Assembly (NCBI RefSeq): GCF_057098645.1
Contig: NZ_CM169472.1
DNA length: 64,000 bases
Strand: one strand, 5' to 3'
Position numbers and translations under genes: made by a program. Shown one piece after another: positions 6,301 through 25,268 of this stretch (positions are counted from its first letter, which is position 1; each line of letters begins with the position of its first letter). Below the pieces are notes generated by a model. That model was not told where the DNA came from, made no database searches, and saw only the letters and a list, made by a program, of their open reading frames with translations.

Positions 6301-6568
6301 TCCCTTTTCCCGGCTGGCAGCGCGTATGGATGCTATCACGGTCAGAAAGATGGGAAAGACAGCCTCGATTAATGATGTCGATATGACTGTGATCCCGGGA
6401 GAAACACTGGCAGAACTGAATGCTCTGTCCGGACCTGCGGTCTCTCTGGTGGTGTTTTCTTCGGGATACCGCCCACGGCGCGGGGATCGCGTTGTTTATG
6501 ACGGACAACAATGGACGGTCACACGGCATGAACGCTTTAACGGTAAGCCAATGATCTTTATTGAGTAA
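6293..6568 (+). CDS. Head-tail connector protein (gpFII-like)
   Basis: 91 aa, translationally coupled to the previous gene (ATG 6293 overlaps its stop). It sits between head and tail genes and has an RRGDRV motif similar to lambda FII RRGDTL. Confidence 0.5.
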   Translation: MSDPFSRLAARMDAITVRKMGKTASINDVDMTVIPGETLAELNALSGPAVSLVVFSSGYRPRRGDRVVYDGQQWTVTRHERFNGKPMIFIE

Positions 6569-6579
6569 AGAGGTGTGGG

Positions 6580-7158
6580 ATGAAGGGGCTTGAGAATGCC
6601 ATCCGTAATCTGAACAGCCTTGATACCCGTATGGTGCCACAGGCCAGCGCATGGGCGATAAACCGTGTGGCACAGAAAGCGGTCTCGGTTGCCACCCGGC
6701 AGGTTGCCGGGAATACCGTTGCGGGAGATAACCAGGTGAAAGGGATCCCCCTGAAACTGGTACGTCAGCGTGTCCGGGTGTTTAAAGCCAGTCCGTCAGG
6801 AAAAATGACGGCCAGGATCCGCGTTAACCGGGGCAATCTGCCCGCCATTAAGCTGGGGACAGCCCGGGTCAGACTGGCCCGGCGTGGTGGAAAACTGCAG
6901 TACCGTGGCAGTGTGCTGAAGGTGGGTAAATATCTTTTCCGGGATGCGTTTATTCAGCAACTGGCGAATGGTCGCTGGCATGTGATGCGGCGTATTGATG
7001 GCAAAAATCGTTACCCCATTGATGTGGTGAAAATCCCGCTTTCCGGACCGCTGACACAGGCATTTGAAGATGCCCGCGACCGCATCATTGCTGCGGAAAT
7101 GCCGAAACAGCTGGGGTATGCACTGAAACAACAACTGAGGTTATGGCTGACCCGATGA
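6580..7158 (+). CDS. Z: Tail completion protein Z
   Basis: 192 aa, the same length as lambda gpZ, with colinear similarity (NGRWHVM.R..GKNRYPIDVVKIP, LGYAL..QLR). Confidence 0.8.
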   Translation: MKGLENAIRNLNSLDTRMVPQASAWAINRVAQKAVSVATRQVAGNTVAGDNQVKGIPLKLVRQRVRVFKASPSGKMTARIRVNRGNLPAIKLGTARVRLARRGGKLQYRGSVLKVGKYLFRDAFIQQLANGRWHVMRRIDGKNRYPIDVVKIPLSGPLTQAFEDARDRIIAAEMPKQLGYALKQQLRLWLTR

Positions 7159-14518: not shown

Positions 14519-17500
14519 ATGGGTAAAGGCAGCAGTAAGGGGCATACCCCGCGCGAAGCGAAGGACAACCTGAAATCCACGCAGTTGCTGAGTGTGATTG
14601 ATGCCATCAGTGAAGGGCCGGTTGAAGGTCCGGTGGATGGATTAAAAAGCGTGCTGCTGAACAGTACGCCGGTGCTGGACAGTGAGGGGAATACCAACAT
14701 CGCCGGTGTCACGGTGGTGTTCCGGGCTGGTGAGCAGGAGCAGACTCCGCCGGAGGGATTTGAATCCTCCGGCTCCGAGACGGTGCTGGGTACGGAAGTG
14801 AAATACGACACGCCGATCACCCGCACCATCACGTCGGCAAACATCGACCGTCTGCGCTTTACCTTCGGTGTACAGGCACTGGTGGAAACCACCTCAAAGG
14901 GTGACAGGAATCCGTCGGAAGTCCGTCTGCTGGTTCAGATACAACGTAACGGTGGCTGGGTGACGGAAAAAGACATCACCATTAAGGGCAAAACCACCTC
15001 GCAGTATCTGGCCTCGGTGGTGGTGGGTAGCCTGCCGCCGCGCCCGTTTAATATCCGGATGCGCAGGATGACGCCGGACAGCACCACAGACCAGCTGCAG
15101 AACAAAACGCTCTGGTCGTCATACACCGAAATCATCGATGTGAAACAGTGCTACCCGAACACGGCACTGGTCGGCGTGCAGGTGGACTCGGAGCAGTTCG
15201 GCAGCCAGCAGGTGAGCCGTAATTATCATCTTCGCGGGCGCATTCTGCAGGTGCCGTCGAACTATAACCCGCAGACGCGGCAATACAGCGGTATCTGGGA
15301 CGGAACGTTAAAGCCAGCATACAGCAACAACATGGCCTGGTGTCTGTGGGATATGCTGACCCACCCGCGCTACGGCATGGGGAAACGTCTTGGTGCGGCG
15401 GATGTGGACAAATGGGCGCTGTATGTCATCGGCCAGTATTGCGACCAGTCGGTGCCGGACGGTTTTGGCGGCACGGAGTCGCGCATCACCTGTAACGCTT
15501 ACCTGACCACACAGCGTAAGGCGTGGGATGTTCTCAGTGATTTCTGCTCGGCGATGCGCTGTATGCCGGTATGGAACGGGCAGACGCTGACGTTCGTGCA
15601 GGACCGACCGTCGGATAAGGTGTGGACCTATAACCGCAGTAATGTGGTGATGCCGGATGATGGCGCGCCGTTCCGCTACAGTTTCAGCGCCCTGAAGGAC
15701 CGCCATAATGCCGTTGAGGTGAACTGGATTGACCCGAATAACGGCTGGGAGACGGCGACAGAGCTTGTGGAGGACACGCAGGCCATTCTCCGTTACGGTC
15801 GTAACGTCACGAAGATGGATGCCTTTGGCTGTACCAGCCGGGGGCAGGCACACCGCGCCGGGCTGTGGCTGATTAAAACGGAGCTGCTGGAAACGCAGAC
15901 TGTGGACTTCAGCGTGGGCGCAGAAGGGCTTCGCCATGTACCGGGCGATGTCATTGAAATCTGCGATGATGACTATGCGGGTATCAGCGTCGGCGGGCGC
16001 GTGCTTGCGGTAAACAGCCAGACCCGGACACTGACGCTCGACCGTGAAATCATGCTGCCATCCTCCGGAACCACGCTGATAAGCCTGGTTGACGGAAATG
16101 GCAATCCGGTCAGCGTGGAGGTCCAGTCCGTCACCGACGGCGTGAAGGTGAAAGTGAGCCGTGTTCCTGACGGCGTTGCCGAATACAGCGTGTGGGGGCT
16201 GAAGCTGCCGACGCTGCGCCAGCGCCTGTTCCGCTGCGTGAGTATCCGTGAGAACGATGACGGCACGTATGCCATCACCGCCGTGCAGCATGTACCGGAG
16301 AAAGAAGCCATCGTGGATAACGGGGCGCACTTTGACGGTGACCAGAGCGGCACGGTGAATGGTGTCACGCCGCCAGCAGTGCAGCACCTGACCGCCGAAG
16401 TCACTGCAGACAGCGGGGAATATCAGGTGCTGGCGCGATGGGACACACCGAAGGTGGTGAAGGGCGTGAGCTTCCTGCTCCGTCTGACCGTAACAGCGGA
16501 TGACGGCAGTGAGCGGCTGGTCAGCACGGCCCGGACGACGGAAACCACTTACCGCTTCACACAACTGGCGCTGGGGAACTACAGGCTGACAGTCCGGGCA
16601 GTAAATGCGTGGGGGCAGCAGGGCGATCCGGCGTCGGTATCGTTCCGGATTGCCGCACCGGCAGCGCCGTCGCGGATTGAGCTGACGCCGGGCTATTTTC
16701 AGATAACCGCCACGCCGCATCTTGCGGTTTATGATCCGACGGTACAGTTTGAGTTCTGGTTCTCGGAAAAGCGGATTGCGGATATCAGGCAGGTTGAAAC
16801 CACAGCACGCTATCTTGGCACGGCGCTGTACTGGATAGCCGCCAGTATCAATATCAAACCGGGCCATGATTATTACTTTTATATCCGCAGTGTGAACACC
16901 GTTGGCAAATCGGCATTCGTGGAGGCTGTTGGTCAGCCGAGTGATGATGCATCCGGTTATCTGGATTTTTTCAAAGGCGAGATAGGGAAAACCCATCTGG
17001 CTCAGGAGCTGTGGACGCAGATTGATAACGGTCAGCTTGCGCCTGACCTGGCTGAAATCAGGACGTCCATTACGGATGTCAGCAATGAAATCACGCAGAC
17101 CGTCAATAAGAAACTGGAAGACCAGAGTGCTGCAATTCAGCAGATACAGAAGGTTCAGGTTGATACAAATAATAACCTGAACAGCATGTGGGCTGTGAAG
17201 CTGCAGCAGATGCAGGACGGACGCCTTTATATCGCGGGTATTGGTGCCGGTATTGAGAATACCCCTGACGGCATGCAGAGTCAGGTGCTGCTGGCGGCGG
17301 ACAGGATTGCGATGGTTAATCCTGCGAATGGCAACACAAAACCGATGTTTGTTGGTCAGGGCGATCAGATATTCATGAACGACGTGTTCCTGAAACGCCT
17401 GACGGCTCCCACCATTACCAGCGGTGGAAATCCGCCGGCATTTTCCCTGACACCAGACGGAAAGCTGACCGCTAAAAATGCGGATATCAGCGGTAATGTG

Positions 17501-23078: not shown

Positions 23079-23213
23079 GTCCCAGTCATTGAGTAATCTT
23101 TTCGTGATATGCCGCAGAAACGTTGTATGCAGGAACGTGCTGCGGCTAACTGGTGAACTTTCGATAGTGCGGGTATTGAATGATTTCCAGCCGTTACCGA
23201 TTTTACGTGCTAA

Positions 23214-23462
23214 TTAGTGAACAAACCACTCGTCAGCAGACTCCCAGGTATCTTTCAGAGTTTCCTGAACAAAAGTTTTAGCTGAATCTTTATCGGCAGT
23301 GCGCGTAACAGAAAGGCCATCGTTGCTGGTGGTTTTTACGATCACCTCTACATCGTCATAACGCTTACTGATGCGTCGAGTTAATTCTTCCTTTAACGCA
23401 TCCACAGCACCGTTTGGCATTTTAGTCATTTTCTCTTTGGCTATGCAGATCTCAATACGCAT
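23214..23462 (-). CDS. DinI-like SOS protein
   Basis: 82 aa. The N-terminal MRIE..IAK and C-terminal [16 protein letters not shown] match E. coli DinI (MRIEVTIAK ... ILQETWESADDWFV). SD GAGGG upstream on the minus strand. Confidence 0.85.
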
Positions 23463-23475
23463 AAAAATCCCTCTA

Positions 23476-23495
23476 CACTGTGTTTGTATACAGTA
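23476..23495. promoter_or_regulatory. LexA box 1 (SOS operator) upstream of the dinI-like gene
   Basis: CACTGTGTTTGTATACAGTA, which fits CTG-N10-CAG and the consensus TACTGTATATATATACAGTA. Lies 16 bp upstream of the dinI-like start. Confidence 0.7.
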
Positions 23496-23503
23496 TTATT
23501 TTT

Positions 23504-23523
23504 AACTGTATGAATAAACAGTG
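23504..23523. promoter_or_regulatory. LexA box 2 (SOS operator)
   Basis: AACTGTATGAATAAACAGTG, fits CTG-N10-CAG. Its centre is 28 bp from box 1. Confidence 0.65.
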
Positions 23524-23681
23524 TCAATAGAACAAAGATTGCTGCATGTACAAATGTTCTTTGGCTACAAATACACCTACTGATCATGTTCTGCTATGCT
23601 CTGATACCTCCAAAATGTACAATCAGCGGCATGAATTTTTCTTTGTACATATGATTGTACATAATCAAAGAGACAACAATT

Positions 23682-25268
23682 ATGACAAGCCTTTTGGCCG
23701 CAGAGGTAGCGAAAAGAAGAACCTTTGCAATTATTTCTCACCCGGACGCCGGTAAGACTACCATCACCGAGAAGGTGCTGCTGTTCGGACAGGCCATTCA
23801 GACTGCCGGTACAGTAAAAGGCCGTGGTTCCAACCAGCACGCTAAGTCGGACTGGATGGAGATGGAAAAGCAGCGTGGGATCTCCATTACTACGTCTGTG
23901 ATGCAGTTTCCGTATCACGATTGCCTGGTTAACCTGCTCGACACCCCGGGGCACGAAGACTTCTCGGAAGATACCTACCGTACCCTGACGGCGGTGGACT
24001 GCTGCCTGATGGTTATCGACGCCGCAAAAGGTGTTGAAGATCGTACCCGTAAGCTGATGGAAGTTACCCGTCTGCGCGACACGCCGATCCTCACCTTTAT
24101 GAACAAACTTGACCGTGATATCCGCGACCCGATGGAATTGCTCGATGAAGTTGAGAACGAGCTGAAAATTGGCTGCGCACCGATCACCTGGCCAATTGGC
24201 TGCGGCAAGCTGTTTAAAGGCGTTTACCACCTTTATAAAGATGAAACCTATCTCTATCAGAGCGGTAAAGGGCACACCATTCAGGAAGTCCGCATTGTTA
24301 AAGGGCTGAATAACCCGGATCTCGATGCTGCGGTTGGTGAAGATCTGGCACAGCAGCTGCGTGACGAACTGGAACTGGTTAAAGGCGCGTCTAACGAGTT
24401 CGACAAAGAGCTGTTCCTTGCGGGCGAAATCACTCCGGTATTCTTCGGTACTGCGCTGGGTAACTTCGGCGTTGATCATATGCTGGATGGCCTGGTGGAG
24501 TGGGCGCCTGCGCCGATGCCGCGTCAGACCGATACCCGTACCGTAGAAGCGAGCGAAGATAAATTTACCGGCTTCGTATTTAAAATTCAGGCCAACATGG
24601 ACCCGAAACACCGCGACCGCGTGGCGTTTATGCGTGTGGTGTCCGGTAAATATGAAAAAGGCATGAAACTGCGCCAGGTGCGCACTGCGAAAGATGTGGT
24701 GATCTCCGACGCGCTGACCTTTATGGCGGGTGACCGTTCGCACGTTGAAGAAGCGTATCCGGGCGATATCCTCGGCCTGCACAACCACGGCACCATTCAG
24801 ATCGGCGACACCTTTACCCAGGGTGAGATGATGAAGTTCACCGGTATTCCGAACTTCGCACCAGAACTGTTCCGTCGTATCCGCCTGAAAGATCCGCTGA
24901 AGCAAAAACAGCTGCTCAAAGGGCTGGTACAGCTTTCCGAAGAGGGCGCGGTGCAGGTGTTCCGTCCAATCTCCAACAACGATCTGATCGTTGGTGCAGT
25001 TGGTGTGCTGCAGTTTGATGTGGTGGTAGCGCGCCTGAAGAGCGAATACAACGTTGAAGCAGTGTATGAGTCAGTCAACGTTGCCACTGCCCGCTGGGTA
25101 GAATGTGCAGACGCGAAGAAATTCGAAGAGTTCAAGCGTAAGAACGAAAGCCAACTGGCGCTTGATGGCGGCGATAACCTCGCTTACATCGCTACCAGCA
25201 TGGTCAACCTGCGCCTGGCACAGGAACGTTATCCGGACGTTCAGTTCCACCAGACCCGCGAGCATTAA
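23682..25268 (+). CDS. prfC: Peptide chain release factor 3
   Basis: 528 aa with the GTPase motifs [12 protein letters not shown] and DTPGHEDF. Beyond the first ~9 residues it matches K-12 RF3 as I recall it. Start chosen at ATG 23682 (MTSLLAAEV); the ORF-track start at 23655 is an extension. Confidence 0.95.

Follow-up and report, generated by a model that had tools for sequence, protein, structure and literature searches.

Our finding that the TGTACA hexamers located upstream of a hybrid prfC gene recur at the other end of the same lambdoid prophage, in the attP of free phages and in diverged relatives suggests to classify them as arm-type sites of the phage integrase, that is, as candidate sites of the P arm that are retained in attR. 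We consider this assignment, which is based on sequence comparison, to be very probable, and these same three observations support the arm-type alternative among the readings offered by the original prediction. Arm-type sites as such are textbook knowledge and expected for the heterobivalent class of integrases. The present comparison provides a concrete and testable arm code (tG-TGTACA-W-A, arranged as a 12-bp tandem pair ∼80 bp from the core), which covers prfC-targeting integrases including those of Stx- and CDT-converting phages and of the SXT/R391 antibiotic-resistance ICEs.

The prfC junction and the TGTACA cluster in attR

Positions 1-23729 of the window (the entire stretch of 64,000 nucleotides that was analysed) constitute the late half of a lambdoid prophage with terminase, portal and tail genes, a Lom-like protein and a tail fibre, and its right end comprises a DinI-like gene (23214-23462, - strand) followed by the hybrid prfC gene. 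The prophage is a cdtI/2H10-like lambdoid phage, of which the late half only is contained in the window. It is inserted at codons 17-21 of prfC, and the N-terminus of the hybrid product differs from the native MTLSPYLQEVAKRR start, which implies that the phage supplies the first 16 codons, as had been proposed at the outset; these codons are likewise contiguous with the arm in the attP of free phages. Records of Stx phages label the 14 bp of core identity as 'duplication due to insertion', and the exact junction is present in 644 of 5426 complete E. coli genomes (∼12%). The reconstructed attP contains, at the core, an inverted repeat (AATTATT/AATAATT) which, judged from its sequence, might represent the core-type integrase site.

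The features are collected in Table 1. Four copies of TGTACA within ∼115 bp had been predicted, and both count and span are correct, with one copy starting at 23616 rather than at 23626. The predicted direct repeat, TTGTACATA-TGA-TTGTACATA (23643-23663), is also present, and the ATG of prfC (23682) is located 18 nt beyond its end instead of 20. When the hexamers are extended to 8-mers their orientation becomes apparent, the two distal copies (ATGTACAA) being the reverse complement of the two proximal ones (TTGTACAT). The heptamer ATGTTCT is repeated between the distal TGTACA sites (23553 and 23586; ATGTTCTTTGGCTA and ATGTTCTGCTATGCT) and possibly represents an excisionase site.

Table 1. Positions of the attR features and of the repeat pair of Moraxella phage Mcat15; arm- and core-type assignments are candidates.
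Feature	Position	Strand	Sequence or remark
TGTACA copies	23547, 23616, 23644, 23656 (window)		
Candidate distal arm-type site	23546..23553	-	ATGTACAA, which is TTGTACAT on the - strand; core 183 bp away
Candidate second distal arm-type site	23615..23622	-	ATGTACAA; core 114 bp away
Candidate proximal arm-type site, tandem unit 1	23643..23651	+	TTGTACATA; TGTACA at -86 from the core
Candidate proximal arm-type site, tandem unit 2	23655..23663	+	TTGTACATA; TGTACA at -74 from the core
Phage-supplied prfC codons 1-16, part of the P arm	23682..23729	+	judged by comparison with the native 5' remnant displaced to attL
AATTATT, left half of the attP inverted repeat AATTATT-N9-AATAATT	23729..23735	+	read from the reconstructed attP
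14-bp core identity, crossover region, prfC codons I17-P21	23730-23743	.	ATTATTTCTCACCC, common to attL and attR
Mcat15 repeat pair	1468-1489 (Mcat15 locus)		tgTGTACAtaattgTGTACAtaat

In the 64-kb window TGTACA exhibits no overall excess (10 copies observed, shuffle mean 10.2), while 4 of the 10 are confined to 115 bp. Of 2000 window shuffles that preserve dinucleotides, none contained at least four copies within 120 bp (the maximum being three, in 2 shuffles), and four were reached in 2 of 20000 shuffles of the local 220-bp intergenic region (32% GC), so that the cluster is indeed remarkable for DNA of this base composition, a point on which the original prediction had made itself dependent.

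Both arms of attP and the cognate integrase

The other prophage end lies outside the window and was taken from the near-identical lysogen NZ_CP015912.1 (50-kb locus; 99.7% identity at the junction), in which attL comprises, in this order, yjjG, a 23-codon remnant of native prfC, a spacer of ∼230 bp and the gene of a 407-residue tyrosine integrase. The original prediction had suggested to search this end for the motif, and four TGTACA copies are in fact located directly upstream of int (6668, 6680, 6689 and 6719 of the locus, i.e. 10-66 bp upstream of the ATG). This second cluster reads cTGTACATATGcTTGTACATAATGTACAAAG...TTTGTACAAGGTGA, with the first two sites at a 12-bp period, and none of 20000 local shuffles yielded four copies in the attL arm. 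Taken together, the two att arms hold 8 of the 11 TGTACA copies of the 50-kb locus.

Joining the phage side of attR to the phage side of attL yielded a reconstructed attP of 1127 bp, which is matched contiguously by the free phages 2H10 and cdtI (97-98% identity over all 1127 bp) and, over 73% of its length, by phage Ayreon. These free phages carry 4 or 5 TGTACA copies on one side of the core and 4 on the other, so that both clusters are present in the attP of related phages, as had been proposed for comparison, and the motif is kept in diverged relatives too. Relative to the core the copies are located at -183, -114, -86 and -74 in the P arm and from +165 to +216 in the P' arm. They are thus part of the DNA contributed by the element, flank the core on either side at a distance from the crossover, are unlike the AATTATT/AATAATT of the core, and share a 12-bp tandem period in both arms. 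In Ayreon, unrelated DNA takes the place of the segment with the DinI-like gene and the LexA boxes, and the fifth TGTACA (position 1489 of its locus) is located just beyond the homology breakpoint.

The 407-residue protein (i) contains an N-terminal Arm-DNA-bind_3 domain (Pfam PF13356; residues 3-90, E-value 1.9e-16, 60 bits with a cut-off of 27), as expected for the integrase cognate to arm-type sites, (ii) likewise contains the central and the catalytic domain of phage integrases according to Pfam, and (iii) matches with its N-terminus the solved N-domains of CP4-like integrases (3JTZ and 3JU0). The integrase of phage cdtI is 98.8% identical. Smyshlyaev et al. 2021 (PMC8138268) have grouped the integrases of the cdt1 phage and of SXT together, in a prfC-targeting cluster of the IntSXT subgroup, a subgroup defined by its arm-binding domain, and the kinship of cdtI phage and SXT integrases is thus already published. 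The prophage integrase exhibits both the DUF4102-type arm domain and the insertion at prfC that characterize this subgroup and its SXT cluster, and it belongs to the IntSXT/P4-type heterobivalent integrases.

A second repeated motif is found in the P' arm of attL (TCCTTTCA/TTCTTTCA; 6539-6558 and 6614-6633 of the NZ_CP015912.1 locus). It also occurs inverted, as TTAATTGAAAG, is present in two copies each in the P' arms of Salmonella and Pantoea, and is a candidate for an accessory-protein site (IHF, Fis or Xis) or an additional integrase site. No xis gene is annotated adjoining int in the NZ_CP015912.1 lysogen.

Conservation among prfC-targeting elements

The P' arms of seven integrase homologues were compared (Salmonella 85%, Pantoea 83%, Xenorhabdus 64%, Serratia 61%, Erwinia 55%, Vibrio 52% and Shewanella 51% identity), all of which adjoin a displaced prfC 5' remnant. 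These arms are for the most part unalignable with that of the prophage, and TGTACA is nonetheless kept just upstream of int: Salmonella, Pantoea and Xenorhabdus each possess four copies, which are the only ones in the respective 6.2-kb loci, three each are found in Serratia, Shewanella and Vibrio, and Erwinia mallotivora has a single exact copy plus GAGTACATAA. Within E. coli, a scan of IMG/VR with an integrase alignment gave a best 80 matches that are all E. coli copies of 98-100% identity, and 21 distinct P' arms of the E. coli type differ from each other in ∼45 columns, none of them within the four hexamers. Hence, TGTACA is conserved with the integrase lineage while the flanking arm DNA diverges. 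The upstream regions of native prfC and attB are devoid of TGTACA across the prophage locus and the examined relatives, and the motif is therefore not a signal of host prfC.

For the P arm, one genome per species was scanned for TGTACA-N{3,33}-TGTACA-N{50,80} followed by degenerate prfC core codons, which returned at least 120 matching DNA stretches where an estimated ∼6 are expected by chance. Since two TGTACA copies are demanded by the pattern, their presence is ascertained, and only the register and the number of matches constitute independent evidence. The pair has a period of exactly 12 bp and is located at -86/-74 (±2) relative to the core in 74 of 80 examined loci. This is the register of the window, and these 74 loci represent 59 distinct sequences with freely diverging flanks. 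The consensus of the arm unit from these 59 P arms is tG-TGTACA-W-A. Other spacings were observed in four matches (Endozoicomonas, one Bacteroidales MAG and two Agathobaculum), which probably arose by chance and are near the expected number. In Moraxella bovis a prfC junction with a TGTACA pair was also observed.

The proximal pair alone is universal. The sites at -114 and -183 were encountered in E. coli, Pantoea and Erwinia only, and the evidence for these distal sites is weaker because they are unconserved outside of this lineage. The counterpart of the site at 23615..23622 is located at -114 in Pantoea stewartii and at -115 in Erwinia endophytica. The site at 23546..23553 is also found in phages cdtI, Ayreon and Stx2c_PV98-693 as well as in one E. 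coli genome of the species scan; being absent from most other prfC-targeting elements, it is specific to the present phage lineage. A search for a third universal P-arm site gave a weak GTAC only, which 17 of 58 sequences possess at -15/-17 relative to the pair.

The comparison extends to conjugative elements. Providencia, Shewanella, Marinomonas, Alteromonas, Pectobacterium and further genera share one and the same P-arm sequence (…agtgTGTACAaatccgTGTACAaactaaaagaatttatacATG), which is preceded by a 215-residue cI/LexA-type repressor and a Cro-like gene and is located at prfC in seven complete E. coli genomes with 99% identity. In one of these, E. coli XH1815, the element encodes a MobH relaxase, an SXT-type TraD, Tra genes, an interrupted umuC/rumB, floR, sul2 and aph genes, and we take it from this gene content to be an ICE of the SXT/R391 family. 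Integration of SXT/R391 at the 5' end of prfC is on record (Hochhut & Waldor 1999, as cited in PMC5812530 and PMC8138268). The P arm of the XH1815 ICE carries the TGTACA pair at -87/-75, and its attL (P') arm holds 3 of only 4 TGTACA copies of a 40-kb locus, namely a pair at a 13-bp period and one further exact copy, which is followed 12 bp later by GAGTACA. Like the prophage, the SXT/R391 ICE targets the same prfC codons, provides a new 5' end of prfC, and has a TGTACA pair in the P arm and TGTACA sites in the P' arm. Unlike in the prophage, int is oriented towards attL and separated from it by xis, and the distance of the P' sites from the core is 130-370 bp, whereas those of the prophage abut the start of int. 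The 413-residue integrase of XH1815 shares 38% overall identity with that of the prophage, and the values for the individual domains are 56% (arm), 22% (core-binding) and 40% (catalytic); the arm domain is hence the best conserved part, which fits a shared arm specificity. In attL of the XH1815 ICE (16268-16290) the ICE DNA following the core reads tgatgccgcc and mimics the host sequence ggatgccggt, so that the homology of attP and attB exceeds the 14-bp core in the SXT/R391-type ICE, which is not the case in the phage.

Proposed function, alternative readings and related arm codes

In the mechanism that we propose, the prophage would recombine with prfC across the 14-bp core and thereby swap the first 16 prfC codons for its own. 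The N-terminal arm-binding domain of the integrase would dock on the ∼10-bp sites with the consensus tG-TGTACA-W-A, and the core-binding and catalytic domains would engage the core, for which AATTATT/AATAATT is the candidate inverted repeat. Bridging of arm and core on bent DNA, as in lambda and P4, would then assemble the complexes of integration and excision, in which the four P sites would be used along with the four P' sites. The tandem pair at 23644/23656 constitutes the conserved centre of the P arm, to which the inverted distal copies at 23547 and 23616 have been added in a lineage-specific manner. The location and clustering of the motifs, their counterpart at attL, their conservation and the domains of the integrase are observations, and binding by the integrase, the need of the sites for recombination and any regulatory effect on int or hybrid prfC are what we infer.

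Among other readings, core-type integrase sites, which the original prediction had likewise considered, can be dismissed, because the motifs are located 74-183 bp from the 14-bp crossover identity; even the nearest copy is 74 bp away, and attB is devoid of TGTACA. It might be argued that the cluster arose fortuitously in AT-rich intergenic DNA, with which the lack of any TGTACA excess in the window (10 observed, 10.2 expected) is in line, yet the shuffles of the window and of both att arms, and the retention of the motif in diverged relatives, make such an origin next to inconceivable. The original prediction had further proposed operator elements of the promoter that the phage supplies to prfC. 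A reading on these lines, in which the motifs primarily serve as operator or promoter elements of prfC (and of int in the other arm) and are bound by a regulator of transcription, draws on their location: the proximal pair ends shortly upstream of the hybrid prfC ATG, the fourth attL site abuts the Shine-Dalgarno sequence of int, arm sites overlapping the int promoter would allow for autoregulation, and the proximal repeat exhibits additional conservation at A+19 (58 of 59 sequences) and T+21 (45 of 59), giving a weakly -10-like cAWAnT. However, a scan of 23150-23800 revealed no sigma-70-like + strand promoter in 23600-23682, and none was found in the attL arm, although the scan leaves room for a weak or non-canonical promoter of hybrid prfC. 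By hand inspection, moreover, the gap of 10-11 nt between TGTACA and CATAAT is too short for a -35/-10 pair, and with such a -10 element the transcript would start within or beyond the purine-rich stretch for ribosome binding. In addition, the P' motifs of the SXT-type ICE, at the distance from the core given above, adjoin no gene start, and the motif tracks the integrase across elements whose regulatory modules are unrelated, namely from a lambdoid phage to an ICE that encodes a SetR-like repressor. A primarily regulatory function thus appears improbable, and a secondary operator role of the arm sites (int autoregulation, control of hybrid prfC) may exist.

Sites for an excisionase (recombination directionality factor) or for IHF/Fis, rather than for the integrase, would be compatible with the tandem direct repeats and with the location of the P-arm pair between the distal sites and the core, since lambda Xis binds tandem direct repeats between arm and core. 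The sites of lambda Xis are confined to one arm, however, and TGTACA is found in both arms and in both orientations; it is also unlike the IHF consensus, for which an exact search of the reconstructed attP (WATCAR-N4-TTR) gave no match, and the comparison with the SXT-type integrase, in which the arm domain is far better conserved than the core-binding domain, is in keeping with an arm code shared by the integrases. We regard this alternative as still less probable than a primarily regulatory one. Somewhat less remote than either, but unlikely as well, is that the TGTACA pair serves two purposes, being at once the universal arm code of pan-proteobacterial prfC-targeting integrases and an integrase-responsive operator, the latter owing to its constant location, 18-40 bp upstream of the prfC start that the element provides. 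If this were the case, such a dual-purpose family would span lambdoid phages, SXT/R391 ICEs and other islands, and the occupancy of the integrase, and hence the decision to excise, would be coupled to the expression of release factor 3.

The assignment as arm-type sites also finds parallels in well-known systems. In lambda, the arm-type sites of Int (P1, P2 and P'1-P'3) are accessory to the core-type sites and differ from them; both phage arms carry such sites, attL and attR retain them, and the integrase, which is heterobivalent, reads them with its N-terminal domain. The prophage resembles lambda in having accessory sites in both arms and apart from the core, but differs in its arm consensus (C/AAGTCACTAT in lambda), in its dimensions (an attP of ∼240 bp in lambda, sites spanning ∼420 bp here), and in that lambda inserts between genes whereas the prophage replaces the 5' end of a host gene. 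Phage P4, the record of which annotates 12-bp 'attP arm sequence repeat' units (ATTGGGGGCATA), shares with the prophage the arrangement of the repeats, which form tandem pairs with a period of 12 bp in each arm and recur in inverted orientation at the start (ATG) of int, as well as an integrase with an N-terminal arm-binding domain of the DUF4102/Arm-DNA-bind_3 type. The repeat itself is different (ATTGGGGGCATA versus tgTGTACAwA), and the integrases are only ∼24% identical. The target of P4 is a tRNA-Leu gene, not prfC.

A different repeat is found in Klebsiella phage 5 LV-2017, which has a different att site and an integrase of 45.6% identity. Four GTGTCCATCA/TGATGGACAC repeats are located at the equivalent place, just upstream of int, and the arm domain of this integrase departs from those of all TGTACA users at otherwise invariant positions, e.g., S29W and Q41F; on the basis of this alignment, it is tempting to speculate that S29 and Q41 set the specificity for the repeat. 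Moraxella phage Mcat15, the integrase of which is only 41% identical, still possesses a pair of TGTACATAAT units directly upstream of int, with a period of 12 bp (Table 1), and neither a prfC-like core nor a second cluster was found within 4 kb.

Arm sites mapped for the present prfC integrases or for IntSXT were not found in the searchable literature, outside of which the primary SXT papers are located, so that a prior mapping is possible. In combination with the prfC core the motif constitutes a simple DNA signature for finding attR ends, as illustrated by the stretches matched in the species scan, and the prevalence of the junction among complete E. coli genomes adds practical weight.

Finally, the DNA between the DinI-like gene and the att arm contains two LexA-box-like palindromes (ACTGTGTTTGTATACAGT and ACTGTATGAATAAACAGT; 23475-23524). 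A promoter-like - strand sequence, TTGACA-18-AAAAAT (23527..23498), extends over the second box, which is the arrangement to be expected of a dinI homologue under SOS control, and a promoter-like + strand sequence, TCTACA-16-TATTAT (23472-23499), overlaps the first box and faces hybrid prfC. The latter is the only + strand promoter candidate upstream of prfC in the scan of 23150-23800, and this hints that prfC of the lysogen might be transcribed from a phage promoter under SOS regulation, in which case the arm sites would be contained in a leader of ∼175 nt.
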